From Schmidtea nova (lineage: Eukaryota), in NCBI GenBank assembly GCA_044892505.1, contig CM097883.1, forward strand, positions 282,782,001 through 282,846,000: 64,000 bases of DNA, read 5' to 3'. Below the pieces are notes generated by a model. It did not search any database. It was not told where the DNA came from and saw only the letters and a list, made by a program, of their open reading frames with translations. The position numbers and the translations under genes are program-made. Positions 1,473 through 55,059 of the stretch are shown here, piece after piece (the first letter of the stretch is position 1; each line of letters starts with the position of its first letter).

Positions 1473-3775
1473 TTGCATGACCAGACGATTTTCAAAATTA
1501 TACGGGACAAAATTTTGAAAATACGGGACAAAATGAAAAAAAATAATAAATGCTTATGCATAGCAACTTTATTTGACGTATTTATCAGAGGACACTATTT
1601 TTTCAAAGAATTCAACATTTACTTTTATCGCTGCATAGGATTAAGTAAAATTTACCTCTGAGTTGTGTTGGATAGTGAGTAAAGTGCTTATAGTTTCAAC
1701 ATCAAATCTGTTTTTCTCATCCTCCCACGCTCGATTAATGAAAGAAAAAATTCTCTCTACGTCACACGAGGTTCCTCGCAATGAAAATGCAAACTCTGCG
1801 CACTTTTCCATGTTAACCAAGCGAGTTGATTGTTCGCGAAAGTGAATAAAAAAATTAAGCCATATTTTCTCAACAGTAAATTCTTCATCTGCATACGATG
1901 AAAACTTATCTTCAACAAATGACTTCATGAGAACATATTCTTCAAAAAGAATGTTTCTATCGATGATAGATTTAATTTTATCTCCATACTTGTCAGCAAC
2001 GTATTCAAACGACTCATCAACTTCATTCCATTCTGGGACTTTTGCCATGAGCATCCACATAAAAATTTGCGATCCATTAAACGACGATTCCCACAATTCG
2101 ATAAAGTCAATTATTGCGTCGTAGATGTCCGAAATTTGCTTCTTGATTTTTACTTGAAGAGTATTGTTGAATTTCTGATATTTAAGTTGAGATTCTCGAG
2201 GCATAAAAGAGAAATCCTTTCTATTCTGCATCTTCCCCTTTAATCTTGTTATTTCATTAGTAGCTTCGAAAGGTGTGGTCCGCGTTAATTCAATGTTTTT
2301 AATCGTAGAGTTAAAATTTTTCAGCTGATTTACAACGAGCAAAATCCAGAATTTTCCACCTGGATTCTCGAAGAATCGTAAAACTGTTGGAAGGCATTTT
2401 TTAATGACAAAAAGTATTGCTTCAACTGATCATAAAGCTCAATTAATCGATTAATAGCCAGCTCTAATGTCAGAAATCTTGTTGATGAATGTTTTTATAG
2501 AAGCTTGTAACTTTCATCCATTGCTTCACAGAAAGTCCTAAAGGTTTCTGTTCGAACCGTATATAAACTGAAATGTTTGTAAATATTAACAACAAGAGCT
2601 TCCATGTCAATGTCAAGAATTTTACATCCATCATTTAATGCGTTATGAGCAATATGAGCTACACATCCATTCCCGATTATTTGTCGACGAAGAAAACTAT
2701 TAAGATGTCTCCATGCGTTGTTTTGGCCATTTCGATCGACTCCACCAAAATTAAGATTTGTATTGTCTGCTCCAAATGCTAAAACTTTCTCCTGCAAATG
2801 TTGTTTCTCGATAATTTTGGAGAGCTCATTAGCTATTGTTTTTAACTTTTCGTTTGTAATCGACACAAGTCCGATTTTCTTGCTAACAACTCCAGCAACA
2901 GGATTAAAGTAGCGTAGAGCAACAGGAACTAATTTCAGATTTTTGTGGTTAGATGTATCAGTCATTAAGCAAAATAAGTTTGCTTTCTTTATGATCGCAG
3001 TTGTTTTTGTTATTCATAATGTAAATTTTCACTCGAAACATGCTCGAATGAGTTCGGATGTGCAATCATTAGAGCGAAAAGAAAAGTTGCGCCTTCCAGT
3101 ATGATATGCAATTACTGCTTCCTTAGCGCTAATATTTAATTCTTCCTTTGTTGTCGAAATCTTTTTAAAAAGCCGCTTACTTTCGTACTTGTGACTCCAA
3201 CATCTATTGCATTTTGTGACGAGTAGTTCCAACATGTTGAACAATATCCGATCAACCACCGTGGCTTATTGAGAATGCTGATGAGCAAACTGTACAGAAT
3301 ACTTTGCTGTCGTCTGGTGGATATCTCTTGATGAATCCAAACTCTGTAGCATAACTGTCGTTCCATGAAGTCTTTCTTTTCTTGCTTGTTCTCATCTGGA
3401 TTAAAAAAATTGATTTGCTGGAGACATTTTTGAACGAAATCAACAATGACATTACTTACAATAATAGTTTTGATGATTTCTTTATCCAATAATGATTTAA
3501 AATCATAAATCCATTAATTTGCAGATTGTAAAATTTAATTTGACAAAGTAGCAAAATATTGAGGTTATCAAAATGTTGTATAAGGGGTAGGAAATTAGGA
3601 TTCGAGTGGGGGAAACAGATAATATAACGACTTAATTGAGTAAAAGTTTCATTTTTGCTTCAATTTGATAATTTTTTTTTAAAAACTTTTATAGAAATTT
3701 TTGAAATAGGGGACACGGGACAAATTCTCAAAATACGGGACTGTCCCGGGTAAATATGACCAAATTGTCACGCTA
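1473..3775 (-). mobile_element. hAT DNA transposon, near full-length, decayed
   Basis: Imperfect TIRs (TTGCATGACCAG / ...GTCACGCTA), subterminal ACGGGACA motifs and exact 8-bp TSD TACTAATT (1465-1472, 3776-3783). Confidence 0.9.
1641..3452 (-). pseudogene. hAT transposase, frameshifted into 4 ORFs
   Basis: BED-like finger (VFCTVCSSAFSISHGG), catalytic-region motifs (ADNTNLNFGG, GCVAHIAHN) and C-terminal SCDVERIFS. Confidence 0.85.
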
Positions 3776-4413
3776 TACTAATTATTATTTGGATTTATGT
3801 GATGATTTTTATTGACTTCTATGTGAGTTTGATAATTTATTTGTAATTTTGATTCATTCATCTTTATATCACATTTGATGGATTTTATTAATTTTTGATA
3901 ATTTATATTTACTCCCCATACATATTAATATATATTATTGCTCATCTAGGGACTAATTAATGAAAGCAGATTATTTTTATTTTCGTTGTTTTCCATTAGC
4001 ACCAAACAGGTGCATTATCTTGTTGAAATGTCACTTAAAGTGCTCATTTGTTTTTATGAAATTTATGAAGCAAAGCGTCGTTAAGTGGAATAATAATGCC
4101 CTTAAAGAGCAGACGATAATGAGATTATGCTCATCAGGGGCGCTCCAAGCGGGCGTGCAACGCGTGCGTGGCACGCAGGCGGCCGTTTGAAAGGCGGCAA
4201 ATTAAAAAAATGAATTTGCAAAAACAACAATTTCATTTTGTAAAATTCAATTTTTCATTTTATAAAATAAAAAAAAAGTTTCGACTATTTTGTTACTGAA
4301 CGCACACAGTTTGTGTAGTATCATTGAACGCACTCCATTAATTTTTATATATCTGTCTTGGCTTGTCATTGACGAATACTATTACACTAAATAACTTTGA
4401 CAAGTTGTCAAAG

Positions 4414-4611
4414 TCATTTAGTGTTTAGTTTATCGTCAACAGATATGGTAACATTATTTTCTATTTCTATAGGTGTGCTTGACGACGCTGTTGGTGTATT
4501 TTCAAAATATTTTGAAAGCGAATTCTTCAAACTCTGCATTGATTTCAGTTTATTTAAACGCTGCTTTTTGTATTGTGCGCCAGATAAACGTTTTGTTTTT
4601 CTTCCGGTCAT
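4414..4611 (-). pseudogene. Inverted N-terminal piece of the hAT transposase
   Basis: MTGRKTKRLSGAQYKKQR resembles the start of ZMYM-type hAT transposases. It is preceded on the minus strand by a GTAAGT...TTAG intron and lies opposite in orientation to the C-terminal piece. Confidence 0.6.
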
Positions 4612-4763
4612 ATCTAATGGTGCAAATAATACAAATAATAAATATCTAACGTACAATAACAAAAATATAGAAAAAGTTGCATTATACTTACCAAATTCTA
4701 TAATACAATCCTGCTTTCTAATCTAATATTATATATCTCTATTTTTTTTAAATAAAAATCTTA

Positions 4764-5411
4764 TTGATTTTTATAAATTTAAAAACTGGAAATATTAATG
4801 TTGTTTTGAATCCAAAATTAAAACACTGTGTTTTAATTTTGGATCCAAAAACAAATTTTAAAATTAACTTTTATTTCTGCATTATCGACCAAGCATTAGT
4901 ATCAATTACAACAAGATACGAAGCGTTAAAATCGTATAATGATATATTTGGATTTATGTATAATATTAAAGATATAACAGAAGAAATACTTTTGAAAAGC
5001 TGCAAAGATTTACATTTGAAATTAACTGACGAACAAAGAAATGAGTCCGATATTAATGGAATTGATTTATTCGAAGAGATAAAAACTATAAAGGTATTTT
5101 TAAAAGAAGAAGATATTAAACCTCAATCTATATTATTATATATTTTACAAAATGATCTTCAGGCAACATTCCCAAATATATTTATTGTGACCAGAATTCT
5201 ATTAACATTACCAATCTCAGTTGCAACAGGTGAAAGATCGTTTTCAAAATTGAAGATAATTAAAAATTATTTACGATCAACTATGCTCCAGGAACGTTTA
5301 AGTAATATATCAATAATTTCAATAGAACATGAAATCCTAGATAATTTAGATATGCATGACTTAATTTCACAATTTGCTTTGAACAAGGCAAGAAAAGTCT
5401 CTTTTGTATGA
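4764..5411 (+). pseudogene. hAT transposase C-terminal (dimerization domain) fragment
   Basis: FPNIFIVTRILLTLPISVATGERSFSKLKIIKNYLRSTMLQERLSNISIISIEHE. Confidence 0.9.
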
Positions 5412-6136: not shown

Positions 6137-6519
6137 TTAATCCGGGATCGGCCTGAGATTTATAGGTGTAGCTTCAGTTTGGGCCTCGATCGTTATAATC
6201 CTCGAGGGCACCCATCTTTCAAACGTAGTTTTCCGGATCTGGTCCTTCAGATGGTCCGAAACAAATTGTTCCGAAACGGTCCTCAAGCATTTATTGAGTT
6301 CTACTTTGTTTGCGGCTAACTCGACCGACTGTGCGTCAAAAGCTCGTTGTAGGCGATCCTTTCTTTGTAATATATCTTTTACGGCAGCAGGACAGAACCA
6401 ACTACGGCGAATCTCTTCCTATTCCGCCCCTGGCGGTTTATAACGTCTTCTAGAAGACGAATACGTCGGCGCAGCAATTTAACCTCTCCTTCGTTGACCG
6501 ATGTACTTGAAGATTCCAT
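6137..6519 (-). pseudogene. Unknown coiled-coil-like ORF with a frameshift and a stop
   Basis: MESSSTSVNEGEVKLLRRRIRLLEDVINRQG, then shifted frame EEIRRSWFCPAAVKDILQRKDRLQRAF...PIPD*. GC content is higher than the flanks. Confidence 0.4.
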
Positions 6520-6806
6520 TTCCTAAATTTTAAACATACTTATGTACCACGTTATTACTAGATATTCGCGACTCATCGCTTTCAAGAGATGAATTTTAAA
6601 GTCTCCCTCCGACCTCACGTAAACTACATTTTTGTCGATTACTGGTACTCCCTTTACATCACTCATGTTCCCTCTTTTATTCAGATCAAGCATTTTTTCT
6701 CACCTCTTTCGCATATTCATCATACACTCACAACATCTAATTAAATGAAACTTTACATCGACAGATTTTTAATAATTTTTTAATAACATTGATAAACAAA
6801 ACGATT

Positions 6807-7372
6807 TTATATACTCCAGTCTTGCGCATAACTACTGCCACTCCGTTGAATTCCTGTTTCATCGTAGAAGTCTGGGTTTGGGTCCCAGCATACCCGACCG
6901 TCGTATAGAAATATCTCATGCCATACAAGGTTTGTCGCCTTGATTTGATCTTTCCCGTCGCCATCGGGCAACTCGATAGGCAGATTTGGGCATTCGATAA
7001 GCTCTCCTGTCCTAATATGTCGGGGACATCCTAGAATGATGTAACCTAACCGATGTAACTCGGAGATTTCTATGCGTTGGAAGTGCATAAGCCATCGGGG
7101 CTTTCCTGTTTCATCCTGGGTTTCTTCGAACCAATTTCGACGAGTCATTGCTTTTCGGTGATCCACGAGCGGCCAATGGGTATCTCCTTCCCATCGCAAC
7201 TTAAATTTCATATTGACTTTCTTGAGAGCATCCTCTAACAACCCTAGCTCCCTACACTCGTGGCACAGATGCCGCCAGCTTGTTGCAGAATCTCCTGGGG
7301 TGCTCCTATGTCGATCAAGAAGGTTGCCACAACTTTCTTTTGCGTCCTTCCACTCTGTTTTCGAGATTTAGC
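6807..7372 (-). pseudogene. Unknown protein family Z, copy 1
   Basis: 144-aa ORF plus a frameshifted upstream part; recognisably homologous to 53904-54470 (W.G.T.WP, RWL.HFQ, PRH, E.FLY....CW, YDE.GI). Confidence 0.6.
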
Positions 7373-9129
7373 ATCCTATTTCAAATTTCCTGAATGGTGG
7401 GTACTAATTTAACTAGTTAGATTGAATGAGAATTACCACCCTTTCATCACACTTCCTACGAGACCGGACCTCATTCATACTCCACAAACATATCTCATTC
7501 TCACTGCCACCTTCAATATTCATTTTCAATGTCACATACCAAGATATCACTAATTTAGAACACTTTACTTAGTTATTTATTTAATTTAGACATCATCGTA
7601 GTGCTGATGAAACATTCGTGGTTTCACTAAAACTTTCTCAAGCCGACTCATTATTGTTGATTTTATTTTATTGGTATTAAATTTCACATTAGCGATCAGA
7701 TTAATTCTTCTGGCATATGGCCTACATTATCAGTCAACATACTCGAACAAATCTGAACATCAATCAATTTTTCAAGCACTCTTTCAGCCATCTGACATTA
7801 CACCCTATTCTCTCAAACATTCATGTCGTTCAATCGTGCGTTTAGGTTCATTTAGGGTTCGGTAAAGTGGTTTGTTTCAGACTAATTGCAATCGCAATTG
7901 TTACCCTGGATTACCTCATTTCCCTTCTTGAAACTCTGTTCTCAAAGTTATAACTATGCGATGTAGCTCAGCATCACAGAAACTTCTATCCGACGACGTT
8001 TAACACGGGACGACTAGTGTACGAGGTATTTTTCACTATTCTACGATGCACTATTACGAGGCGCGACACTACCATTTACCATACGATAATGCACGATGTG
8101 ACTAGGTACGATACTCCCAAGAGCAACCCCCTCCCACATTCTATTACCTCTACTACGCCGCATCAGCCATCACCCACTAGGGGATGCGCTGAGAGGCCAG
8201 CTTTTCGCCCGTTAGATCCAGAGACCTTCAGGACGCCACCTTATGAATTTTATCATCAATATCATGAGAGTTTAAACATATAATAAGACTAAAACATGGA
8301 CATACCTTTTATTCCTGTTCGATTTCACTGATACAAAAATTTTCGATAATCAAGATGACAATTCAATGGTACAATGACAATTGACTTGTAAAAGTGACAT
8401 TAACTCACTGAGTTTGGATGCCGTATATATACTTATTTTTGTTGACGGCCAGCCAATCAGAATTCAGTATGCGTGTGAGTACTGTAATCATTTTATTTTT
8501 AATGCTTATCTTTACGTGCTTATCCGGTGAGTTTTATGTTTATTCATCCGTAAATCTTTTATTTTATTCAATTTATTTTAGATTTCGTGTTCTACTTGAG
8601 CTGTCCGCCCACTCACTGTCAGTCTTGAGTAGCTTGCTCTATTGTGCGATTTTTCTTTGCGTTCTGCGTGAGTAAGTTTTTGATTGTTATTATTCATTCT
8701 AATTCATTGTTAATTTATTTCGGGCTTCATTGCATACTAATGATTCTTGATGCATTGCTGGTGTTTTGATAGTTATTTTATTATTTTATTAATTTTCTGT
8801 ATTCATTTTATTCCAATTTTAGATTATTTGCGATTCTCCGGGCCCAACAAAGTTCCGAAGTGGGTCGTGTAATACTTGCATTTATTATGTTTTAATGAAA
8901 TTATGGAAAGAGTTTTGCCTATTGGGGATAAAGGCGGGATAGATTGATAGGTTTGATAATGCACAGTGAGAGGTTCAGCTTAGCAAAATTCCTAAATATT
9001 TGTCGGGTGCTGAAGTAGTTACTTGTTGAATCAATCATGTGAGATGTGTGAAAAATATAGGAAATATAGTCTAGTAATTAGTTAACCACGACTGGTGTAT
9101 TAATTTTTATTTCGCTCATACAATTTAAG

Positions 9130-12126: not shown

Positions 12127-15100
12127 TGAAGTCGAATGCACAAGAATGACTCTATTTATAAATTCATAAAATTAACAATGACGTTTTTGACATTATTAAA
12201 ACAAACATAATAATCAATTATCACATTCCCCCGTGATGTCAACATCATCGTCAAGCGTGTCGTCGCCGAGAATATAATCTTGTAGTTACGCTGGTACGTA
12301 TCGGTTTCTTTGTTGCCTATCGGTTGACATTTCAGTCGTAGGTTGACCATTATTTTCAATAGTTCGCTCTTCTCCCGTCGTGTCAGTCGACTCAACCTGT
12401 CTGATGTCAGCTATGTGCCTGGGGACACCATCCACCTCGATATTCGTGGACGAGTGAACGTTTGTGACGGTAACCTCCGTCCAAACACTTGTACATCTTG
12501 CATTCGGCAGCTTACAGAATACCTTGTCTCCTCTAGCATAACGACTCAGAATTTCGTCATTCCCGATTTCCACTTCTTGCATATCCTTCCAGTCGTATGT
12601 AAATAGTTGTCGCGAAGGCGCTTCAAAGTCGCCATTGGAGCTCATGTTGAACCAGTAAACCATGTCAATGGGGTCCCCTTCCGTCCGGGCCGCCATTGTC
12701 TTCACGGTCCTGTGGTTCCTCTCAACAATTCCGTTTCCCGATGGTCGTTAAACGCACCGAAAAATACGACCAACACCCCACTTTGCACATAATTCCTCTA
12801 ATTGTCGAAACCTAAATGAACTGCCATTATTCATGAGCAACTGGCACGGATGTCCGCGTTCTCTGAATATTTGTTCACAAATTCTAGTAATGGTCACAGA
12901 ATCCTCGTTAGAAATCTCTCTCCATATTGCCAATCAACTCAGTCCGCAGTCGATACACGTCAAATAACGCTTATTCTGGTAGTGAGTCACGCCTAACGCC
13001 AATCTGGTCCAATTGCACTTCACCGCCAAATTTCCATGTTTCCATCTTACAAGTGCCGGATCTATCGTTCGACATTTAATACAGTTTGATATCACACCTT
13101 GTACCGCTTTACGAGATACGTTAGGAAGCAACTTCCTTATGAAATACAGAGTTCGATCCACTCCGAAGTGATGCGCCTCGTGGCACTTCCTTATTCTGTC
13201 GGATATCGATATAGTAGAACAACTTACTTGTTTAACCCATGTAAGCCAAGCTTTCTTGACTCTAGTTAAAACGTCGGCCTTGTTTTTCTCGGTCGGGACA
13301 AACTCCACGACTATCTTTAAGTTGTAAACCAGTTGGAGTTAGTGAACAATTTGTAGACGCCTACGAATTAGCATCTCGGAAGATCCGTGAGTTTTTACTC
13401 GATGACTATCTGTCAGTAATGACCCCAGCCAACTTTGGACCGTCGTAGAATCTGATTTCACGATTATCGACGACAGATCCCACTTAATCGCGAGGTTAGT
13501 TCCTTTAATTACAGCATCGAGTTCAGCCACGTTTATATGCGCTGCGTCGTCTGTCTTTCTCAGCCAAGCGGCATCCTCCACGATCTCTCCGTTGATTTCA
13601 AGACAAACTCCAAGAGCCAGATTGCTTGCATCACACCATACAACTCCATTTTTTGTCTGTGAAACATGCCAAACTTCACGAACTGGATCATCTTTCTTAA
13701 CGAGTTCGATAATTTCAGCTATTATCATGGAAGCATAATCTCCAATTGTATCTTCCCATGTTGAACCGGTACTCTGGCGCTTAACATAACTACATGCAAT
13801 CCGCAACCAGCCAGCAACCGGGTAGTGACCGACCAGCTGACCGCACAAGGACAACAGCTCCCTCCTCGTCATTGCTTCGTTTGGTCCCATCTCATTGATT
13901 ACGTTTCCTCTCCTCCAATATTTGCTTTCCTTGCATCTAGAGATCTGTAATCACAAAACTTTAGAAGTATTGAATTTTTCCGGAGTTTTAACTGCTAGCC
14001 CGCATCTTGGCAGATGACGCACAACTTCGTCTAATTGTACTTTTGACATATTTACAATGATATCGTCAATATAACTGTCGGTTGCTTCTTTAATGTCTTT
14101 GCGTAATCCTAACACTTTTCGCACTATGGCAGACATTATTTTCGGTGCTAGATTGAGGCCGAAACCCAATCTTGTCAAAGCCTATATCTTTCCTTTAAAC
14201 CTGACTTTTTGAAAATCCCATAGATCGGGATTTACATGTATTTGTAGATAGGCTTTCCTCAGATCGAGCATCTCGACTTTCTCCCCGAATCTTCGCCAAC
14301 GCCTTAAAGATTCGTCACAAGCTTCACTCTGACCCGTGTGGCTCGTTACATATTTATTCAGTTCGCGATAGTCGAGTACTGGTCGTATTTTTCCTTTGTT
14401 AGACTGATTAACTGCCATTAATGGTAATATACCATCAGAGTTTCCTTCATAAGGCGTTAACCAATTGTTCGTAAACCATTCTGTGATTTCCGCTTCGAAT
14501 CCATTGCGTAGCTCTGGTTTAATTCCATAGTTGGCACATGTATTACCAAGTTCAGAAGGTTGATTTTTCCATTTCCAGCTTACTGTCCAATTGCCGGAAA
14601 GGAAATCGGCTTGAAAGTCTTCATCTCTAATTTCCAGAGACTCGGCATGTCGTTCGTCTGCTCTCAAGAAATCGGACTTTCTCCCCACGGCGCTGGCCAA
14701 AGGAAACGATACCCCTTGCCTTGATATATTCACCCCGCCGAGTATTCCTATAACATCCATTCCCAAAATTACACCAAAATCTCTTGGAAGGTTATCCATC
14801 ACCAGGCAGACCACTCGCAGACTTGTCTTTCTAGTAACAATGTTAACGTCAACGGTTCCGAAACTCTTGGTCAATGATCCATCAGCCACCAGCACACTCT
14901 CGCTCTTCCCATACGGTCCACTGTCCAAAGAGGACAAAATAATAGATTGGGTACAACCTGAATCTATTAAAGCTTTGGAAGTCCTTCCGTTGACAGTTAC
15001 AACGACAGAGTACAGCGTCATTATTGCTTTTCCGGAGTGAACACTGGCGCACGTGTTGCTCCAATAGCGTTTCCCATCTGTTTCTTTGGGCACGATCGCG

Positions 15101-15842
15101 CGAGGTGGGCTTTATCACCACATATCCAACATTGTTTGTTTTTTCGGAAACATGAATCTTCATTGTGCCCTTTCTTTCCACAAAACCAACACATTTGATC
15201 ATTAGGATTGGCAATTCTTCTTTCTTTTACTCACAGCATACAACTTTGCTGAGAAACTGCATTACTTAACATAGCTCGAGCTATTTGTACGACCGCATCC
15301 ATTGCCATTGTTTCAATGTTCGGAATAGCCTATAGTGACTGTGATATAGACGCTGGAAGTCCAGTAACGAACGAACATCTAATATCGGCATCATTGACCC
15401 CAGATAACTTACCTAGATATGTTAGTTCGGCCAGATAAACATCGACAGGCTCGTTGCTCCATAATCGATTCTTCAATTTTTCAAAAGCAAGAAACATCGA
15501 CATAGAAAAGGCTCTTTTTATTGTTGCTTCGGTCTTGATGAAACTTCATCTGACTTCATCACTGAGATGCTGATACACCGCATATGCGTCTCCTTTCATC
15601 AGTATCGGTAGAAGCATCTCCAAGTTTTCAATCTTTTGCATGAGAGCTATCGTTCTTACATGGATAATCATATCGTCACGTCACCCGTTCCATCAAATTT
15701 CTCAATATATTTAATAAATTCCATGAATTTAGCCGCGATAGCTTGAAGTCGAATGCACAAGAATGACTTTATTTATAAATTCATAAAATTAACAATGACG
15801 TTTTTGACATTATTAAAACAAACATAATAATCAATTATCACA
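12127..15842 (-). mobile_element. Full-length Ty3/Gypsy-order LTR retrotransposon with 99-bp LTRs
   Basis: LTRs 12127-12225 and 15744-15842 (TG...CA, 1 mismatch), 5-bp TSD CCAAC and PPT GGGGGAA. Gag has two CCHC knuckles; pol has PR (LIDSGC), RT (YIDD), RNase H (WCDAS, HINVAEL) and IN (HHFGV...C..C). Several frameshifts and stops. Confidence 0.95.
15732..15743 (-). promoter_or_regulatory. Putative non-canonical primer-binding site
   Basis: Directly abuts the 5' LTR and lacks TGG; its complement GCCGCGATAGCT looks like tRNA nt 1-12. Confidence 0.45.
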
Positions 15843-19533: not shown

Positions 19534-19636
19534 TTATTATTAGTATCTTGTTAGGTAGAAATGTTATGTGAGGGAAATATGTAAGGGCCCAAAAGAGTCT
19601 CCCAAAGAAAAATGAATTGTGGGGACAATTGGGGTG

Positions 19637-19681
<45 letters not shown>

Positions 19682-21739
19682 GTGATAGTTCTACAATTAA
19701 ATATAACAAATTATAAAAAAACAATAGAATGAACAGAACTATTAATCAAGTTATCAAATTTTATTAAAAGTTGAACAATAAAAAAAAACCACGAACTATT
19801 ACTTTGATTTTTTTTGAGTGTGGGATAATACTGTTATTGGATAATAATTGTTTATGGCGGCGAAGTACAGTCCGCATGAGGATTGTGGACTAGAGATCGT
19901 TTCTTTTATTTCTATTCTTTGTAAAGATCTTTTGGATTTGTTAGATTTTCAAGCGGGATAATACTGTTTATGGATATTAATGGTTTATGAATAATAATGG
20001 TTTATGAAGGCGAAATGCAGTCCGAATGAGGATGGTGGACTAGAAAGTATTTCTTTTGTTACTATTCTTCGTAAAGATCTTTGGTATTTGTTCGATTTTC
20101 AAGCTGGATAATACTGTTTATGGATAACAATGGTTTATTTTCCTTGGTTTTGTAGATTAGGGAATTATTAGGAATTAATCTTAGGACTTAATTTTTAGTA
20201 GCTTCTTTTTCGATTGTTTCTTTTTCTTCCTTGGTAATAATTATGGTCCATTGATTTTTATATTTTTTTAATTTTCAATTTTTTAATTTTGAATTATAAT
20301 TATAGGGTTAATAATAATAATAATAATCAAAGTCAACGCAATTTTCAATCGACCGGGGGGGGGACCTCCGCACTCCATACACCACCCAAGATCACCACGA
20401 CTACCCTAACGATAAAAATACCAATAAAAAGGCCAATAAAAAAACATAACGATAATAAACCTTTGAGTACACCACACAACTTCCCCCTTTAAAACCGGAG
20501 GTTAACAAACATACCGAAAAATTTACAGATTAACAATGTGGACGACTTATTTTTGTTGTTTTGCTTTATTTTGTTTTTTTTTTGTTTTTGTATTTGTTTT
20601 GTTGTTTATAACGTTTTAACCAAAAATTTACATATTTACAAAAGACTAAAAACTGTACATTTAGCTATGTTGTGCCTGTGTATGTTTATGTATTTTATTT
20701 GAGGCATTCGCTATATCGTTTTTTGTATAGGGGTGTGATTATTGTGTCCTTGTCGAATAGTCTTATTGAGTTTTTGGGGTTGAATGAGATGTGTTTTTGT
20801 TTTGTTGGGGTTTTGTCTGGAGGGTTTTGGTTGTGGTCAATGTTGGATGGTGTTAGTTTGTTTTCATAAAATGGTTTTAATCGGCGTATGTTTATTTTAA
20901 TTGACTTGTTGTCTTTTACGATTGTGCCGACGTTTTTGTACAAATTTAGTAATTTGTATGGACCTTCGTATTTTGTTTCGAAACCACTTGTGAAAGGTTT
21001 CTTTATTAAGACTTTGTCTATTATTAGTCTGGTTTTGTTTTGTGTTTGTTTTGTGTTTTTGTTTTTCAGGGTGTTTTTTAGTTTGGTGATTTGTGGTTCG
21101 TTGAATTCGTAGTTTGCCTCAACCTTGTTTTCTGTTTCGTCTTTTAAGTTTGGCAGGTTTGTGTTGTGTCCAAATACCAATTGGCTAGGACTTTTGTTGT
21201 TTGAACTTGAAGGGTTGTTGCGCAATCCTACCAAAATTTCTGGTAATTTTTCCAACCAGTTATCGTTATTGTTCGTTTTTGTTCTGATTGCTTGTTTTAT
21301 AGATCGGTGTAATCTTTCCACTTTTCCGTTTGATTGGGGGTTATACGCTGTTGTTCTGTTTTTCTTAATGTTATATTTATTACACAGTCCTTTAAAAATG
21401 TCGGATTCAAATTGTCTACCTTGATCGCTGATTATTGTTTTTGGGCAACCATACCGTGCGAACCAATTTAGTTCTAATTTGTTGCAAATCTTTGCTGCGG
21501 ATATTTCCTTTATGGGTATGGCTTCAAACCAGTTTGTTTTGCGATCTATTATTGTTAACAAATACTTGTGTTTGTTATTGGGTGGTAGAGGTCCGACTAT
21601 GTCGATGTGTATTGTTTTCTTTTCTTCTAACACCAGTTATTATTAGTATCTTGTTAGGTAGAAATGTTATGTGAGGGAAATATGTAAGGGCCCAAAAGAG
21701 TCTCCCAAAGAAAAATGAATTGTGGGGACAATTGGGGTG

Positions 21740-21800
<61 letters not shown>

Positions 21801-22596
21801 GTGATAGTTCTACAATTAAATATAACAAATTATAAAAAAACAATAGAATGAACAGAACTATTAATCAAGTTATCAAATTTTATTAAAAGTTGAACAATAA
21901 AAAAAAACCACGAACTATTACTTTGATTTTTTTTTGAGTGTGGGATAATACTGTTATTGGATAATAATTGTTTATGGCGGCGAAGTACAGTCCGAATGAG
22001 GATTGTGGACTAGAGATCGTTTCTTTTATTTCTATTCTTTGTAAAGATCTTTTGGATTTGTTAGATTTTCAAGCGGGATAATACTGTTTATGGATAATAA
22101 TGGTTTATGAATAATAATGGTTTATGTAGGCGAAATGCAGTCCGAATGAGGATGGTGGACTAGAAAGTATTTCTTTTGTTACTATTCTTCGTAAAGATCT
22201 TTGGTATTTGTTCGATTTTCAAGCTGGATAATACTGTTTATGGATAACAATGGTTTATTTTCCTTGGTTTTGTAGATTAGGGAATTATTAGGAATTAATC
22301 TTAGGACTTAATTTTTAGTAGCTTCTTTTTCGATTGTTTCTTTTTCTTCCTTGGTAATAATTATGGTCCATTGATTTTTATATTTTTTTAATTTTCAATT
22401 TTTGAATTTTGAATTATAATTATAGGGTTAATAATAATAATAATAATCAAAGTCAACGCAGTTTTCAATCGACCGGGGGGGGACCTCCGCACTCCATACA
22501 CCACCCAAGATCACCAAGACTACCCTAACGATAAAAATACCAATAAAAAGGCCAATAAAAAAAACATAACGATAATAAACCTTTGAGTACACCACA
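19534..22596 (-). mobile_element. Non-autonomous LTR element: long LTRs with integrase only
   Basis: LTRs 19534-20476 and 21637-22596 (about 99% identical apart from TA length), 4-bp TSD GTAC, PBS TGGTGTTAGAAG (tRNA-Leu-like) and PPT AAAGGGGGAAG. Confidence 0.93.
20695..21633 (-). CDS. Gypsy-type integrase core and C-terminus, open ORF without AUG
   Basis: HIDIVGPLP, SDQGRQFES, YNPQSNGKVERLH and GPY motifs; starts at a GTG inside the PBS. Confidence 0.85.
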   Translation of the reverse strand: MLEEKKTIHIDIVGPLPPNNKHKYLLTIIDRKTNWFEAIPIKEISAAKICNKLELNWFARYGCPKTIISDQGRQFESDIFKGLCNKYNIKKNRTTAYNPQSNGKVERLHRSIKQAIRTKTNNNDNWLEKLPEILVGLRNNPSSSNNKSPSQLVFGHNTNLPNLKDETENKVEANYEFNEPQITKLKNTLKNKNTKQTQNKTRLIIDKVLIKKPFTSGFETKYEGPYKLLNLYKNVGTIVKDNKSIKINIRRLKPFYENKLTPSNIDHNQNPPDKTPTKQKHISFNPKNSIRLFDKDTIITPLYKKRYSECLK

Positions 22597-37365: not shown

Positions 37366-39935
37366 TTTAATATGAAATTTGATTTGGAGCTGTTATTAGT
37401 GTACACGCACCAATTCTTGAATTTTGATTGAATTTTTGAACGATAAATTTGAAATTATTTTTTTAATAATTAAATTAAGTATTGTAAAAATATTTTATTT
37501 ATTTCATTTAATTTTTATCATTTTCAATATTTATATCGTCACCAATATCTAATATTCTGTATTCCGAAATATGCGATTGACGTTTGAAGAATTGTATAGA
37601 TAGTTAATTAATTAAATAAAAAATATTCTCAAAGTGTATAGTTACTGTACGAAGAACCAGTGGCGGATTTAGATTTTGGTGCGTGGGGGGCGACCAAAAT
37701 TTTCAGGGGGCTCCACAAATTATGAAGATTGTACTACTCATTTTCCCGAGTATTGAGTGAATACTAATATTATTATAAAGCATTAGATTCAGTAAATTTA
37801 TTGATGTAACAAACATACCAGTTTATTTATTATTTAAATTGCTTCCTGCGTGATTTCATTGAAGCAAAACGATTTATAGTCGATTCAAAGTCAATGTTCT
37901 CAGCCAGTTCGCGTTCTATTGAAATTAATGCTAATCCAGACAGACGTTCGTTTGTCATTGTTGATCGCAAATAATTTTTGATAATTTTCAGTCTACTGAA
38001 ACTTCTTTCAGCAGTAGCAGATGTAACAGGAAGAGTCAAGTATATTTTATAGAGAATTGCCAAATTGGGAAGTCCCGGCGCCATCTGTTTTTCAACCAAG
38101 AAAGGCAGCACCTCTTTAAGTTGTATATCACAAGATAGTAATGGGCGTATTGATGCATACACGTATTTGAAAGTATCATATTCTAGGATTGCTTCTTCAA
38201 TATTAATATCGTTTTTGTAAATGTCGCATAAATTTTGAAAAGATTCTTTATTTTCTTCTGATATTTGTGATGGATCAAGACAGGAGAATAAAGCAACAGT
38301 GTTATGAAAATCATTAAAACGTTCATCTAGTTGTGTTACAAGTGTATCCAAGACAGTGAAATACGTTTCACATTTGAAACGTGTAGTTGGATCATCAACA
38401 CTTTCATCTCTGTTAAGTTCGCCTGCCATGCGTTTCTTTTTTGCAACTCGCTTTTCTTTAAATTCTGTTTCAACATCTGGTGAAGAACAATTTTTGGTAA
38501 TAAATGATTTTACAGCAACATTTAGACTTTCAAAAGCTTTATCACTTCTCATATCAGCAAACTTATTTCTGGCAACATAAATCAATTGTTTTGCAAACGC
38601 AATATCTATGTCCTTTCGTTGCAAATAGTTTGATAACACAAAGATATTATCTAACAGCTTTTGTAGAAATAGCATCAGAAAAACAAAAGAATATTTTGTT
38701 ATCAAAATAGATAGTCCCATAGCTTCTGCTCTGACACTTCCTTTGTGTTCTTTTGATTCCCCAAAATTTATATCTTCTAGAGTAGATATAATAGCAGAGA
38801 ATGATCCAACAACTGCATCAACTGCATGCTTTCGACTTGTTCATCTTGTATCAGAAAGTCGTTTTAGAGTATCTACTGTCGATCCATATCGAGACTTCTG
38901 ATGTTCTTCGAGAATATGTAGTCGTGGTAAACTTGATGTAAGGAAAGTATACAACTTTTCTGTTGTACCAAAAAACAACTGAACATCACTGTTAAGAGAC
39001 ATTGCTTCAATAGTCACCAAATTCAATGCATGAGAACAACAGTGAACAAAGATGGCATTTGGTGAAAGTGTCTTTATCTTAGTTTGAAGACCATTTTTAA
39101 TCCCAGACATCACAGAGGCACCATCATATGCCTGTCCTCTACAAAGTGTAATGTCAATGTTTCGCTCTTGTAACTCCGTTAATATTATATCAGAAAATGC
39201 TGCAGCATTACTGTTTTCCAACTTGTAGAAGCCTATAAATCGCTCAACAACTTGTCCTGATTTTAACACTAATCTTAAAGAAACTGACATCTGATCAACT
39301 CTGGATATATCAATTGTTGAATCAACAATTAGAGAAAAGAATTGTGCAGACCTAACTTCATTATCAATATTTGCGGATAATTCAGAGGCAAGTGATTGAA
39401 TTAGGTCATTTTGTACATCATGACATAAATAAAGTTCATTTTTCTTTTCAAACTTTAGATGATTGTCCAAAGTGGAATCATATTTAGCCAATAAAAATAG
39501 CAATTCTCGAAAATTTCCAATATTACTACTACTGTCAGAGCCAGAATGTTCTCTGTGTCCTCTGAATGGCAAACCTTGTTTTGCTAAAAACAACGTTGCA
39601 TCTACCATGCGTTTCAAAACTTCTCTATTTTTTCCACTTGATAACGCTCCTGACTGATCAAACCAGATATCACAGTTTTATCATTTGAAATGCGATATTT
39701 AGCCAGCAAATATTGGCATATTGCACTTTGATGTTGATTGGAAGCTTCATGTTTAACGATTTTTTCCATGCCTTTTTTCCAGTTATAAACTCCAAAATTT
39801 GGATCGGACCATTCCTTGCTAAAATTTTCAGTTTTACAATCAGCGAATAACCATCAAGCTTGGCAATGCATTTTTTGATTTGTTGGTGAATAGACAAGCT
39901 AATTTCTTTCCTCCTTCATACTACCTTTTCCAAAC

Positions 39936-40167
39936 GGGTATTATTATTTCGTCACTTAAATTACAAACATGGTCACTAATTTTTTTTAAATTTGTCTCTT
40001 TAATTACATAAATGTGCTCGTCATTTAATTAAATTGTCTATTAAATTTATTGAATGATCACTAGGTCTAAATGGTCTCTTTAATTAAAAAAGTTGTCTCT
40101 TAATTTGTTTATTTAGTCACTTATTTTAATTTAATGGTCTAATTTTGTGATTAACGATCACTTATTA

Positions 40168-40245
<78 letters not shown>

Positions 40246-40758
40246 TATCATTATATTNNNNNNNNNNNNNNNNNNNNNNNNNNNNNNNNNNNNNNNNNNN
40301 NNNNNNNNNNNNNNNNNNNNNNNNNNNNNNNNNNNNNNNNNNNNNNNNNNNNNNNNNNNNNNNNNNNNNNNNNNNNNNNNNNNNNNNNNNNNNNNNNNNN
40401 NNNNNNNNNNNNNNNNNNNNNNNNNNNNNNNNNNNNNNNNNNNNNNNNNNTATTTAGTATTATTTAGTGGTTATGGTTTGTCATTTTTCTTATTAAATTT
40501 TTTTTTACATAAAAATTCAATTAAATTTCAAATAAACATTTTGAACAGCTTACATTTTTTTTATTTAAGTGACTTAAAGTAATTTAAGTGACCATATTTG
40601 GTAAATTTAAGTGCTCACTTATATTTAATTTTGAGTGATCAAGTTAGTAATTTAAGTGACCAAATCTGTAATTGAAGTGATCGCTTATGATTTATTAAAG
40701 TGATCAAAAATATTAAGTGATCATTTATGTAATTTAAGTGACCGGATAATCACCACCC
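39936..40758. mobile_element. MULE-like insert interrupting the hAT transposase (spans an N gap)
   Basis: Inverted arrays of GGTCACTTAA / TTAAGTGACC motifs; flanking 10-bp direct repeat TTTTCCAAA(C/A); the transposase frame rejoins when it is removed. Confidence 0.6.
40258..40450. other. Assembly gap (others at 46600-46872 and 56395-56532)
   Basis: Runs of N. Confidence 1.
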
Positions 40759-43291
40759 TTTTCCAAAACATTTTGTGTACCAAGAAATTTGAAACTTGCG
40801 CCCCAATTCATCTGTCGGAAATTGATATAGTTCATTGAGTCCAGGTTGAAATGGTCCGATTTCAAACAATTTTCGTATCAGTTTCGAGCTTATGCTCGTA
40901 TTAATGTAGAGTCCTGGATCTGTAGGAAAGTCGGATTGAGGAAGAAGTGGTTCTTGTAAAATATCTGAAACAAGTTGTTTTTCCACTGTATCAAATTCTG
41001 AACCACCCTGATTATGTTTCAAGCCCTGAGCAGGTAATGTTACCGTCTCAGTATTCTCTGCACATGAATGTATAGCTGGGTGTTGATCATCAACTACAGA
41101 TAGTACTTGCTCATCTTCAACAAGAACTTCAGATGATGTTTCTGTCTCAGCAGGCTCAGTACAGGAACTCGAATGCGTAGATGGGTGTTGATCATCAAAT
41201 ACATGCACATTTTTAGCAGAAACTTCAGCTGATTGAACTACTGGCAGTTTAGACTGTTTAGTAATAAATGATGTTAACTTAATACATTTGCTAGCATCTG
41301 CCTTGAGACTGGCTTCCTTTGCCAATTTACGCCTAGATGATCCACTTAATTTGGTAACTGATTTTCTTTTATTAGTGTCACCAGTTGACTCAGCCATGGC
41401 TCTAATTTAAATTTTATTTTAATTCAATATTGAATATTATTTTAATATTTCAATACTAACGCAATAATTTGTTTGTCATAAAAGTCCAAATTGACAATAA
41501 TTTTTATGGTTAGATTTATGTACAAACACTATACAAGCTTAAAAAAGTCAAACTGTCGCTCTTCACAGGAGCTATGTAATATTATTAATATGATGCAGCA
41601 TAACAGCTGGAGTTGCTTAAATCCAGTTGAACTTTGTACACAGACAAAACTGTAATAAGAGACAGTGGCAGTCTCAGCACTGCTGAGTAAGCTGTAATCT
41701 GCACTACTGAAGAATATGCCTGCTGCTGTGCTGCATCAACTATGTTTAACAACATAGCTGAGTAATAGGTACTATCAATAATAATAATAATAATAATAAT
41801 ATAAACGGTGACTCTGAGCAGCTGTATGCTGCAGTGATAGTAGAATACATTTCAATCCATTTAGCTCTTCCAAATCAAAGATATATTAAATTGTCAGTGT
41901 CAGTGATCGGATTAATCTTAATGCTTGTACACATTCATAAAAATTATCTTTGGGGGGCGCCAATTAGGATTCAACAGGGGCGTGGGGGGGCGACCCACCC
42001 CCTTACGCCGCTGTTGAATCCGCCACTGCGAAGAACTTATAATAATAACAAATTGTTATTTTTTTCATGGCTCAGAGTTAACTTTATCAGTTAGAATAGT
42101 TTTAAAACATTTAGCTTATGGAAGTCACGACTGTATCAGATTTATTACACGGCTTCATCCAGGATTTGGTTTCTTTTAAAAATTAATATAATATTTAATT
42201 TTCACTGAAGATGACTGCAAAGATTTAATCCTTTAAAGAAAGGAATCCGAAATAAATTTTTGTTTTCATAAAATATTTTTTTTCATTCGTAGGTTATTTC
42301 AACACATTCTACAACGATTTTGTTTGGCGAGTTATTTGTTCCAGACATAGATTTCTCGGATGTCATTTTAAACATAACTGTCTTTACACCTATGGATCAT
42401 ATGATTTACTAATATGCCTACTTGTAAGATATCAAATGTTTTTATAACTTGATAAAATAAATGTTGATATTATTTGATGGAAGGTGTTTTTAAACAGCGC
42501 ATCTCTTACTTCACAAAATACATGCGTTAAGACAACTGTATGCGAGCTAGTGACGCGTTTCCGTCTAGTCATTTAAATTGTTACAGGAAATCAACGTACT
42601 TTAAGCGTTTATCATTTTATTACACTCTAAAATATGAAAACGGGAGTCACTTAATAAATTTAAACCTGGATATTTCTATCCGATATTATTTGCCTGGATA
42701 TTTTGGTTGATTATCTTAGGACGCCACACAATACGTTCTAGTCTGCTGACAGAGTAAGGTATCACTTAACACAATGGATTGTCAACCCATCACCTGTATG
42801 ATTGTGTTGTTGAATTTTTAAGAAAACTTTAATATCTGCTTGTATGAATCTTGATGCTCTAGGGTTAAAATACACATAAAATGACTACTGTCCATTTACA
42901 CGTAAATACCCTATCTATTTATGGATAATCATGGCCTAAATGTTGAGCCTACGTGTGCGCAATAATTAATTTATTTCGCGTCTGTGTGAGCAGTTGTTTC
43001 AGTTTAAAGGAGATGTATGCCATCTTCTCGCGTCTGTGTGCGCAGCATTGATTTTTATGGCTTGCTGTTCTTGCGTCTGTGTGCGCGTTTCGTCGAATTC
43101 TTTTAGTTGTTTAATAAAGGAATTTCTGAATTGTTAGATTTATTGATTGTTTTATCGAATTAATTCGATTAATTGTCTTGTGTTCTTCATGGAGATTTTC
43201 GAATTTTTGCTAAGTGGAAATTTATTTTGCAAATAAACATTTTGAACAATTGAAGACTCCAATTTGGAGTTAGTTTTTATTTTTCACTCTT

Positions 43292-44327: not shown

Positions 44328-44782
44328 AAGCAGATTTTTGTAAAAACTTTTACTGGAAAAACCATTAATTTAGAAGTTGAGTGCAGCGATAAAATTGAAA
44401 ATGTGAAAGCGAAAATACAAGATAAAGACGGCATTCCACCAGATCAACAAAGATTGATCTTTGCCGGTAAACAGTTAGAAGATGGAAGGACTTTATCAAA
44501 TTACAACATTCAAAAAGAATCTACACTAAATTTGGTTTTGTGTTATCAAGGTGGCATGCAAATATTTGTAAAAGCATTAACAGGGAAAACTATTACCCTG
44601 GAATCTGAATTAAGCGACACAATAGAAAACGTAAAGGGAAAAATCTAAGACAAAGTAGGAATTCCACTAGTGCAGCAAAGATTAATTTATGCTGGCAGAC
44701 AATTAAAGGTCGCCGAAAATTATCGGACTATAAGGTTGTTAATGGGTCGACCATTCATTTGGTCCTGCGTTTTAGAGGAGGT
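44328..44782 (+). pseudogene. Tandem di-ubiquitin, decayed
   Basis: Unit 1 at 44328-44555 (start ATG changed to AAG, ends CYQGG). Unit 2 at 44556-44782 (TAA at Q31, 1-nt deletion, ends HLVLRFRGG). Confidence 0.92.
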
Positions 44783-45271
44783 GGTATTGAAGATGATGAT
44801 AACTACAGAAATTTATGGACTCGTCGGTGTTCTCGAAAATGGAAAATAACTCGAGCGCGTAATTTATTGTTGGCAGAAATGGTCGGGGATATTAAGGATA
44901 CACTTGTAGCCTATGAAAAAGAGTTTGACGATACAATGGACGAATGGCTAAGACTTGTCGAGTTATGTGACGAATTAAATAAAATGGAGGAGTTTGTATT
45001 GGTTGAAAAAGATATTTGTGAGCTCGCAGCGAAGAAGGAAGAGGTAGATAAATTAATGCAAAAATAAACAGAACAAAGTATTGTGAGCAAGGGATCAAAT
45101 ACATTGGAATGTGAATCACCAAAGGAAAGGAAGAGTTTAAATCGGTTGCAGAAAATAAAAATTCCAATTTTCGATGGGAAAGTGGTAGAGTCTAAAACGT
45201 GGTTAGGTATTCAATCCTCAGATGATAAAGGATTTAACGGGGAAATAGAAAAAACTTTCGGTGCTAGATAA
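44783..45271 (+). mobile_element. BEL/Pao Gag-like N-terminal fragment in frame with ubiquitin unit 2
   Basis: RRCSRKWKITRARNLL..., helical region, then RLQKIKIPIFDGKVVESKTW resembling the BEL Gag KLP.L.IP.F.G....W motif; one stop at 45065. Confidence 0.65.
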
Positions 45272-51481: not shown

Positions 51482-53903
51482 TGATTATTATTAATGCAAG
51501 CATAAAAATAAAGATTCAAAACAAATACTTTATTTTTTTAAAACAATGATAAAACATACCAATGAGTATTTAATTTAGAACCAAACTTAAAAGAAAATAA
51601 ATATAATATAATATCCATCATGTCTTCTGAACTTTCATGTATCATGGCTAATTTCATTTTTGAATTCGCCTCTTTGTGAATATTTAATTTTCGATGTACT
51701 AAAGCAAATATTTTATTTCACTTCTACCAGCCCAACACGCATATCATCCAGCAAATTGTCACGTAAAAATGGTCAACTCTCGCAATTTCCAAAAATTAAA
51801 TAGCTCAGAATTCAAAATTTTTAATACGAATCTACTAAAAATTGAATGACAAACAAAAAATGGTAAAAAAGTCTCGATAAAAAAAGTCGTATAAAAGCAT
51901 AGTTTTGATAACTTTTATTATATCAGAACTTTTGTGTGGTTATGAGAGTTATATAAATAAATAAATACTATACTATACTATACTATAATAAAATACTAGT
52001 TTGCGTCTTTGAATACCGTATTGCATTTCAATAAAAATGTAATAGGATTCTAGACGTTTAATTAATTTGAAAAATCATTGCCCTTGGCCAATCCCCTGTT
52101 CCCCAACATCAATCATTGAGAATTATGCACACATCATAATTAACGGCCAAACTCAATCAATAAGCTTAACACGTCCAAAACTTTGCACTGGGTTTTATCG
52201 AAAACCAAAAAGCACAAGAGCTTGAAATTGAACATCTAAATCACAGTCCAGAAAGATATTATAATTTCCCAAACAACAAAGACTTTTGTACAAAACCAAC
52301 ATAAAATTAATACAATCAACCACTTACTAATCAAAATAAATGACCATAAAACCGACTTTGAAATACAAAAGTAGTCAAAATGTTGAGAAAACTAACTATC
52401 AAAGATCATTAACAACAGCATTAAACGAAACTGAAAAATCAATCAAACGTTTTTATCAAAAGAATACGCAACAAGGCAGACCTTCAGCAAATAACAGATT
52501 CAAAAAGATATATTTCGCGCATTAGTTACACAAAAGAACAATCAACCAATCAAACGAGACTCCAGGTAGTTTAATCGAAAATAATCATTTTAATAAAACC
52601 TTTGAACTCCATTTTTTATATTTTGTTCGGTTGTTACAACTCTTTTCTTCATCTTTTATTTTTACTATTTTCAACATTCATGCCATACCATTGTAAACAA
52701 AATTGTAAATAAATAAAATGTTGGACCATCAAAATAAGGTCTTAAAGAGAAACAAATTAAAACGAAATATAAAAACAATAAATTACCAACGATTACCGAG
52801 GAACCTTGAGAGGATCTGAAATGAATAAATAAAATTAAAATATACAAAAAATATAAATAATACTAGTGCAAATTAAATAATTTGCCCGTAGATCGAACTG
52901 AGGACATAGCTGAAATTAAAAAGAATTAAATGTTTATAAAATAAATCAAACAAACCAGCTAAGGAATTCCAGATAAGACCGATCTAAATGATAGATAAAA
53001 CAAATATTTATAAACAGATCAAACTGCGAACCCGGGATGAAATTCCAAATACCTAAAAAAGAAAAGATTTTAAGTGGTAAACAGTTAATAGATAAATAAA
53101 ACATTACCAATTAATATCCAACAGACATTAAGAAAGAATTTCAACATGATGACGTAGTTGATTTAATTGGAAATTCACGTGAAAAAGGGGACGTATATCT
53201 ATTTGAGGGGATGTTTGAATTATCCTCCGTAGTGCGAGTAAATTGATTTTTAGTGGGAGATCTTCTAGCTAACAGTATAACCGATTGATCGATTGGGGTA
53301 TTGTGCGATTGGATAGAGCGATTATTGGTGTCGGTGGATTTGTGTGATAAAAATGTAGAGAGCCAATATAGCGGGTCAAGTAACACGATCGTTTCTCGTG
53401 GTCTATGAATCAATTTTGGTAATGATCAATATCGATCGACCTAATCTACGTGGTGATATGCCAAGGCGGAGTGGACGGAATGATGAACGGGTTGGATAAC
53501 GAGTGATAGCTTGATAGCACTAATACTTACCATGTATGAGGTCAACAAATTATATAATAGTTAAAGGACCTATAAATAGATGACAAGTAGAGCCGCATAA
53601 GCGCCAATAAACATTCCCTTAAATAGTGTCAGCTAAATTCGTGAAAAGTGGCATGAGATGTGCATCCGGATTTTTCTTATCAACGTTGCACCCGACCTTA
53701 TCACACATAATTTACACACACGCATATAAATGGGAAGTCGCGAATTTGGGTTTACATTTAATTTTCAATTTTAATTATATTTAGCCCGTAATCATATCAA
53801 CACGATGGAAAAAAATCGAAGAATGTTCAACAGTGCCAAGTACTCCAATGAGCAATCATAACCAACATTTTTATTAGAATATTTTAATTTCAGAAGACAA
53901 ACC

Positions 53904-54470
53904 ATGAATGTCATCAGGCCGATTCAGTCTCCAGGAATTGCCACTCTGTATCACAGGGATAGAAAGGTCGCAGTACCAGCCACCTGTCCAATCAAGAGAA
54001 TCTCGTCTGCAGTTGCTAACGAATTTGTTTTCCATGCATGAAGATAGCGAATTGAATTTCTGAGGTCAGCACCCTTCGGAATATGAAAAAGTGATCGCAA
54101 AGAAATATGGTGGCAAGGTGGCACACAATGGCCAGGGGAGTTCAGGAAACTCATCGCCTACAAAAACGCCAGCTTTTAGTTTATCGTGCTGCGTGATGAG
54201 ATGGCAGTGCTACGATGGTTACAACATTTTCAAAATGTTACTGTGCCGGACTTAAATTCCTTGAGATTCATTCTGCTGGACAAGCCACGACATAATCAAG
54301 CAGGCGAAGGTTTGGGATATTCGAACCTACTGTTCGACTTCCGCGAACAATGGCGAAAGATATCTGAGTGGGCAGACGAAATACACATACAGGAAGTTTT
54401 CCTCTACCGATCAACTACCTGCTGGAGATTCAACAAAGCTATTTATGATGAGAAAGGGATCGTGAAGTAG
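53904..54470 (+). pseudogene. Unknown protein family Z, copy 2
   Basis: Single frame of 188 codons with 4 stops; homologous to 6807-7372. Confidence 0.6.
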
Positions 54471-55059
54471 GAAGTGAATCTCTCTCAAGAGCTAATCTGA
54501 CGAATAACCTGGATGGATTGAGTGTCTCTACGATCCGATCAAATACGATGAACTTTTTATTATTTTGAGGGAAAATTTCAACTTAATTAAATGAAGAAAG
54601 CATTATAATTATTATCAGTAGCGTAAATCCATGATACGAAAAAATCAAATATTTTCACATGAAACCTCAGTAATTAACTATTTCAAGGCAGACGGTTATC
54701 TGTAAAGACCACCTATTCAAAAATTGTTTTATATCTTCCTACTGGTTTTCTCAACTAGCCACGACGTTAAATGTGTTGTCTATATGGTACTTTAAATGCA
54801 TACTATGCGTTTCGTGTAATATTTTTTTTGTGAGCTAGTTTAGGTTAATGTAATGAAATGTTATTTTTTAAATATAAATAAAGTTTATAAAAAACTTATT
54901 ATTTTTGTTTTTGCCCTATTGCGGTCAGGTGGTCTCATGAGATAACCGCGTCCTGCAGGATAACGTTAATATTGTTGAGTATTACTATTTATTTAAGTCG
55001 GTGCTGCTGATCTGACTCTTTGGTGTTCTTATGATTGATTTCCGAAAATAACCCAACAC

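Follow-up and report, generated by a model that had tools for sequence, protein, structure and literature searches.

Family Z, a gene carried in the LTRs of giant Burro-type Gypsy retroelements of Schmidtea nova

The two family Z coding stretches in the window (the whole 64,000-nucleotide stretch of Schmidtea nova DNA that was analysed) almost certainly represent a gene carried within the long terminal repeat (LTR) of a retroelement. The gene, subsequently referred to as ORF1, probably belongs to a Burro-type Gypsy element, is likely expressed by splicing and likely encodes a non-enzymatic accessory protein that acts in trans. Both copies in the window are decayed, truncated remnants of the LTR and are dead. 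The sequence-only reading had described family Z as an unrecognised protein family present twice. The analysis does not support a rare family standing on its own; the gene is one that a giant Gypsy retroelement carries in its LTR, it has thousands of candidate copies, and it encodes a small protein of no recognised fold.

Both coding stretches were found where that reading had placed them, at 6807-7367 on the minus strand and 53904-54470 on the plus strand, and all of the motifs that they were said to share are present in the order given. The first is a stop-to-stop frame of 186 codons, of which 6810-7283 is family sequence by profile and the first ~30 codons lie outside the family. The second is a single frame interrupted by in-frame stops at 54039, 54045, 54084, 54177 and 54468. 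Local alignment of the two with BLOSUM62 gives a score of 179, which was equalled in none of 5000 shuffles (mean 29.7, s.d. 4.8, maximum 65), and tblastn gives 34-36% identity with an E-value of 3e-17; synonymous sites are saturated. The homology between the two copies is real. The claim that Trp, His, Cys, Asp and Glu residues are conserved held in part, as the Trp columns and several Glu are well kept whereas His and Cys are not: two His columns of the alignment contain His in 41/82 and 57/88 rows, and the Cys is replaced by Ser in the young lineage. The description of the family as present twice was a strong undercount. Searching the 1.25-Gb genome gave 3221 first-look candidates with copy 1 and 2707 with copy 2 (its largest piece serving as the query), and for each of the two queries 150/150 scored candidates matched.

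The copies share far more than their coding sequence. DNA similarity among them runs from about 1.6-2.2 kb before the ORF1 stop codon to about 1.27 kb after it, and includes a second open reading frame, ORF2, of about 187 codons, which lies downstream of ORF1 on the same strand and has a clear codon-position pattern. The boundaries of this unit are TGTTGGGCC on the left and ACCAGCA on the right, giving the TG...CA termini, and the right end has 533 exact matches in the genome against 17 for the control. Fourteen solo copies were defined by the presence of both ends with neither a primer site nor a purine tract; ten of these are flanked by a perfect 4-bp target duplication, three by a 3-of-4 match and one by a 5-bp duplication. 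Candidate LTR pairs chosen by the spacing of their ends were rejected, being independent solos or segmental duplicates. Tail-to-tail pairs of family copies or LTR ends, 1-2 kb apart, were also observed (G000:C1:6181643 + / 6183682 -, and G000:C1:73332652/73333590).

The link to a retroelement came from a copy 81% identical to window copy 1, in which the right end is followed by a 6-nt spacer and then TGGGGGCTCAGCCGGGAT. The same primer site follows a diverged LTR that stands before a gag/fusion/protease region, and the complete junction of LTR end, spacer and primer site has 150 matches in the genome against 0 for the control. Searches that allowed a spacer of 0-3 nt had given no shared flank, the true spacer being 6 nt. 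The primer site is complementary to the 3' end of the genome's own tRNA-Pro(TGG). Genes for this tRNA form a tandem array with a 308-bp period near 459.6 Mb of G000:C1, and its 3' pattern has 1106 matches genome-wide. Among 30 primer-site-linked loci, ORF1 lies upstream within 1.5 kb in 23 and ORF2 likewise in 23.

Following five of these loci outward led to a full-length element in every case, 27.0-29.4 kb long, with an internal region of about 20.5-23 kb. The paired LTRs of 3.2-3.3 kb are 99.8-100% identical, all five elements have 4-bp target duplications and the same purine-rich tract before the 3' LTR, and both ORFs are present in both LTRs. Pfam matches in the interior comprise gag, two CCHC knuckles, a fusion glycoprotein (PF24664, E 5e-68), protease, reverse transcriptase, RNase H, integrase and ankyrin, with a RING/zf-TRAF/MATH ORF after the polyprotein. 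The protease, reverse transcriptase, RNase H and integrase occur in one frame at residues 2064, 2376, 2597 and 2835, and the PF24664 domain, which is present in a second family too, is in frame upstream of the protease. In two of the five elements this polyprotein frame stays open for about 5,090 codons; in the other three it is broken. In this young lineage 141/150 ORF1 matches are without a stop, and many of them are paired about 26 kb apart. That primer site recurs in a more distant family of Burro type, at L135:1821-4846 and L136; the LTR of this family keeps a relative of ORF2 (30%), and tblastn found no ORF1 there.

Window copy 1 corresponds to the first ~2.7 kb of the ~3.3-kb LTR (6160..8849, minus strand) and aligns over 2730 columns, at 85.7% identity, with nt 1-2673 of a solo LTR of 3299 bp, which itself has a CTTG duplication. 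The target duplication of copy 1 is unreadable because the last ~0.6 kb of the LTR is missing. Its 5' end, TGTTGGGCCC (8840..8849, minus strand), is the left boundary common to the family, and the purine tract typical before 3' LTRs is absent there. Continuing along the minus strand, a promoter-like site (8424..8457) consists of a reverse CCAAT box and a TATA box, then an initiator-like TCAGT, and is followed by a AATAAAAG/GTA motif (8303..8313), in which a poly(A)-like hexamer is joined to a putative splice donor. A second conserved DNA block with self-complementary arms lies at about 8100-8230 (minus strand), about 220-330 nt downstream of the LTR TATA box and within the putative first intron. 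The family Z gene (6807..7336, minus strand; profile match E 3e-75) has an open core at 6810-7283 and a frame break near 7275-7340, with its upstream part in another frame at 7277-7336. The remnant of ORF2 (6161..6519, minus strand) is recognised by tblastn (64%, E 2e-35) and by a profile match; it has a frame break near 6412-6430 and loses its end at 6160.

Copy 2 is a remnant of an old, distant sub-lineage (53126..54553, plus strand), the DNA of which is 73-78% identical to three other loci over this span. A tentative LTR 5' end, TGTTGGACC, is found at 52719; a promoter, donor, ORF2 and LTR 3' end were looked for in copy 2 and none was found. The acceptor-like TTTCAG (53888..53906, plus strand) precedes the ATG of ORF1 by 10 nt and would serve its splicing. 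The gene itself (53904..54497, plus strand; profile E 1e-47), with its five in-frame stops, continues beyond 54470, homology extending to about 54497. The two copies lie far apart on a tree of 90 copies, in which copy 1 is sister, with support of 100/100, to the ORF1 of a primer-site-linked 5' LTR, the two being 81% identical; the older sub-lineages of the window copies are about 30-37% identical to the young ORF1. The window copies are independent insertions from two old sub-lineages, and a genome of 1.25 Gb with thousands of copies would be expected to have two this close together now and then.

No primer site occurs within the window, and its sole matches to the internal proteins of the element are pol matches of 28-35%, situated at other elements. 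Both copies most probably arose as solo LTRs through LTR-LTR recombination and decayed later. The 5' LTR closest to copy 1 keeps its primer site and first internal ORF, with no gag-pol in the next 39 kb, so an intact parent of the window sub-lineages is not seen. Among the other elements in the window, two direct repeats of ~950 bp (97.4% identical) at 19534-22596 flank a single integrase-like frame (20695-21636) and form a small non-autonomous LTR element. A small LTR-type element at 12127-15842 has 99-bp direct repeats (99%) and, by eye, broken protease/RT/integrase-like frames. Remnants of hAT-type transposases occur at 1641-5411 and 37830-41406 (PF05699 at 4752-5408, the rest by eye), and a C-terminal fragment of ubiquitin at 44609-45067 (PF00240, E 0.017, below the cut-off) is followed by a helical acidic stretch.

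The arrangement of signals within the LTR suggests that both of its genes are expressed. A reverse CCAAT box, a TATA box and an initiator-like TCAG are found upstream of both ORFs in 18/22 LTRs, 325-858 nt and mostly about 400 nt from the 5' end. In 51/70 promoter-bearing loci the AATAAAAG/GTA motif occurs about 75-150 nt downstream of this promoter-like site. Of 29 copies, 25 have a YAG no more than 3 nt from the ORF2 ATG, against 170/1724 control ATGs; for the ORF1 ATG (start codons picked by a length rule), a YAG stands within 14 nt in 13/17 copies against 549/1724. All three of the internal accessory ORFs that were examined show this acceptor-before-ATG design. At the ORF2 stop codon an overlapping or directly adjoining A[AT]TAAA occurs in 28/32 copies, and in 19/29 the hexamer is near the ORF1 stop or within 60 nt after it; as the copies are related, none of these motif counts is independent. 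With both ORFs behind a promoter-like site and a donor-like motif, and each provided with an acceptor-like site and a poly(A)-like signal, spliced expression of the two appears likely, possibly from solo LTRs too.

Judged from these sequence signals, transcription would quite probably start ~420 nt into the LTR, from the LTR's own CCAAT-TATA promoter, a leader of ~100 nt would be spliced to the acceptor just before either ORF1 or ORF2, and each ORF would end at its own poly(A) signal. With a single leader and alternative acceptors, any LTR would be a whole transcription unit. The AATAAAAG before the donor could alternatively be an A-rich translation context and not a poly(A) signal. No GT-AG joints were found in two sequencing runs of unrecorded type, searched as contigs, a result that weighs neither for nor against splicing.

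The codon-position pattern bears out the past selection that had been proposed for family Z, as do dN/dS medians of 0.17-0.43 for ORF1 (33/325 pairs with pS<0.6), values that are favoured towards the low side because mostly open copies were chosen. A folded domain had also been proposed, and agrees with a compact alpha/beta AlphaFold model predicted from a 90-row alignment (pLDDT 79.5, pTM 0.76). The best-kept columns are mostly Trp, Phe, Leu, Pro, Gly and Asn. E37, E99, E128, R93, N105, N141 and Q159 (numbered as in the first row of the alignment) are kept in 82-94% of rows, mostly from decayed copies. Its pI is mostly basic, as is a stretch at the N-terminus of the protein.

The family had been described as one that could not be assigned, and the sequence and fold searches agree, although a lack of matches does not in itself make the fold a new one. 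For the 90-row model there was no match in BFVD, and the best Z-score among 48,161 PDB chains was 2.4 (rmsd 4.4, 70 aligned); a 26-row model (pLDDT 67.9) gave nothing in PDB or BFVD at E<=0.001 and a best Z-score of 3.3 (rmsd 3.5, 68 aligned). Pfam, searched with both copies and 26 aligned members, gave a best E-value of 0.004, to unrelated families. A search of 5.8 billion proteins, restricted to near lengths, returned 0 hits for copy 1, for the ORF1 alignment and for the ORF2 alignment. No family Z relative was found in PDB sequences, metagenome contigs or viral contigs, and ORF1 showed no likeness to ORF2 or to the internal proteins of the element. Two hits of the ORF1 profile among 1.84 billion representatives (E~3e-4) were both to repeat-rich proteins and were rejected on inspection.

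ORF2 encodes a basic protein of 187 residues (pI about 10), with dN/dS medians of 0.12-0.14 (67/496 pairs with pS<0.6, again from mostly open copies). An N-terminal coiled-coil-like part is followed by an arginine-rich stretch and a leucine-rich tail, a layout that we take to be reminiscent of Rev-type export factors, and a TQT motif resembles a dynein-light-chain site; no homologues were found in protein searches. The last ~250 nt of the LTR contain a conserved predicted RNA structure in which 97% of cells are paired and 16/56 pairs show two-sided changes, a value as high in 0/500 shuffles. Rfam gave 0 hits on four LTR loci, the structure at the LTR end being without a match.

The requirement for the two genes can be judged from a lineage that has lost them. 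Four of the 30 primer-site-linked LTRs are without both ORFs; three of these (L167, L168 and L169) share one 1.65-kb deletion, while L183 has a separate one. The 1.65-kb deletion is present in both LTRs of 3/3 young full-length elements, reducing these to 1.56-1.58 kb, and the elements, which are 93-96% alike to one another, retain pol and the TRAF ORF. In addition, ORF1 is broken in both LTRs of one of the five young elements. Since a young lineage without ORF1 and ORF2 in either LTR has spread, the pair is dispensable in cis, and the combination of this with purifying selection points to an accessory protein that is trans-acting or optional. ORF1 protein would then act in trans, an element borrowing it from other copies.

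Complex retroviruses use small spliced accessory genes as regulators, and by analogy ORF1 may be a regulator in the nucleus that binds RNA or protein and either increases expression of the element or counters host silencing, a reading that is held tentatively. In a planarian, PIWI reportedly represses Burro, and knock-down of piwi is reported to increase Burro RNA (PMC8532177), which would provide a motive for such a role and is no test of it. It is rather less probable that ORF1 encodes a component of the particle or a cargo protein, or an effector directed at host signalling in the manner of the TRAF, RING and ankyrin cargo, instead of a regulator of the element's own expression. The element does carry several ORFs of host-signalling type with the same acceptor-before-ATG design, and a cassette dispensable in cis is what would be expected of passengers; however, ORF1 has no likeness to host-type domains or to internal proteins of the element, and its mostly basic pI and basic N-terminus fit nucleic-acid or nuclear roles slightly better.

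That ORF1 occupies this place in the LTR as an enzyme of unrecognised fold, for example a nuclease or modifying enzyme, is unlikely. Its Glu, Arg, Asn and Gln columns, at 82-94%, would be compatible with invariance in active elements, and the compact alpha/beta fold of the predicted model would suit an enzyme. Against this, all His columns are at <=65%, the Cys becomes Ser in the young lineage, the best-kept columns are aromatic or structural, and the Pfam, PDB-sequence and fold searches matched no enzyme.

In another, very improbable reading the 3.3-kb unit would be no LTR; it would be a mobile element in its own right, with two genes, or a DNA transposon. The unit has its own target duplication in most copies, and an adjacent flank was common to 0/57 of the right ends first examined, but near-identical units also occur as pairs on either side of gag-pol, together with a primer site and purine tract, which refutes this as the origin. 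DNA transposons of the TIR kind, such as Ginger, encode a transposase and have inverted repeats tens of bases long at their termini, whereas self-comparison of the unit found no such repeats, its ends match over ~6 bp only, and its only genes are ORF1 and ORF2. A domesticated host gene family would account for purifying selection and deep divergence but is equally improbable, as the copies lie within the ends of repeats that have target duplications, stops occur in most members of the old sub-lineages, and intact copies are concentrated in young elements.

The preferred reading, an LTR-borne accessory gene, changes what a solo LTR may be. Solo LTRs are normally non-coding scars, and here they contain two selected genes behind the LTR's own promoter. 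LTR recombination would leave a possibly expressible cassette and not a dead end, in hundreds to thousands of copies, and a gypsy element would acquire spliced accessory genes laid out as in complex retroviruses. It is a speculative and somewhat doubtful extension that every solo LTR is a complete two-gene cassette, that ORF1 has a new fold, and that the solos form a dispersed pool of helpers acting in trans for the cassette-less elements and possibly affecting host cells. The natural cassette-less lineage offers a ready comparison, and the value of the window copies is as markers only.

The element is Burro-type by every feature that could be assessed, the comparison with Burro1-4 being one of description and not of sequence; the assignment is made because its architecture matches the account of these planarian elements (PMC6431247). 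In that account Burro1-4/GYPSM1 are giant gypsy-like LTR retrotransposons of >30 kb, with an internal region of up to 25 kb and one polyprotein of ~5,000 aa. Shared with the elements so described are the giant size, a ~5,000-aa polyprotein with gag and CCHC, and very high copy number; an env-like fusion domain that separates gag from protease within the one frame, ahead of the PR-RT-RH-IN order; and ankyrin repeats, MATH/TRAF cargo and accessory ORFs (PMC6431247). The elements differ in their total length of 27-29 kb, slightly below >30 kb, in the TRAF ORF placed after the polyprotein, and in having LTR genes, as the Burro text names none inside the LTR (PMC6431247). The BIR and BCL2-like motifs of Burro were not among the Pfam matches at E<=0.01 in the frames scanned. 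The literature searched contained no description of genes inside Burro LTRs, and the original Burro figures or supplements may show such ORFs. The present analysis ties the solo copies to complete elements and adds the primer tRNA as well as the cassette-less lineage.

The giant Burro-type kind of retroelement is known, and so are retroviral genes that overlap an LTR, namely sag of MMTV, nef of HIV/SIV and bel/tas of foamy viruses. Like these, ORF1 and ORF2 are small accessory ORFs in or overlapping an LTR, with spliced RNA in the retroviruses and putatively here; no relation of sequence or fold was found between ORF1 and the retroviral genes. The retroviral genes occupy U3, ahead of the promoter, and are expressed from the 3' LTR. 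In contrast, both ORFs here lie downstream of the promoter-like site, so that any LTR, solos included, holds a promoter, donor, acceptors and poly(A)-like signals. In foamy virus, R contains a donor adjacent to the poly(A) signal, close to where the transcript begins and in both LTRs (PMC3694450), and the arrangement described here is similar. The order differs, as the foamy virus donor is upstream of the poly(A) signal (PMC3694450), whereas here the hexamer abuts the 5' side of the putative donor.
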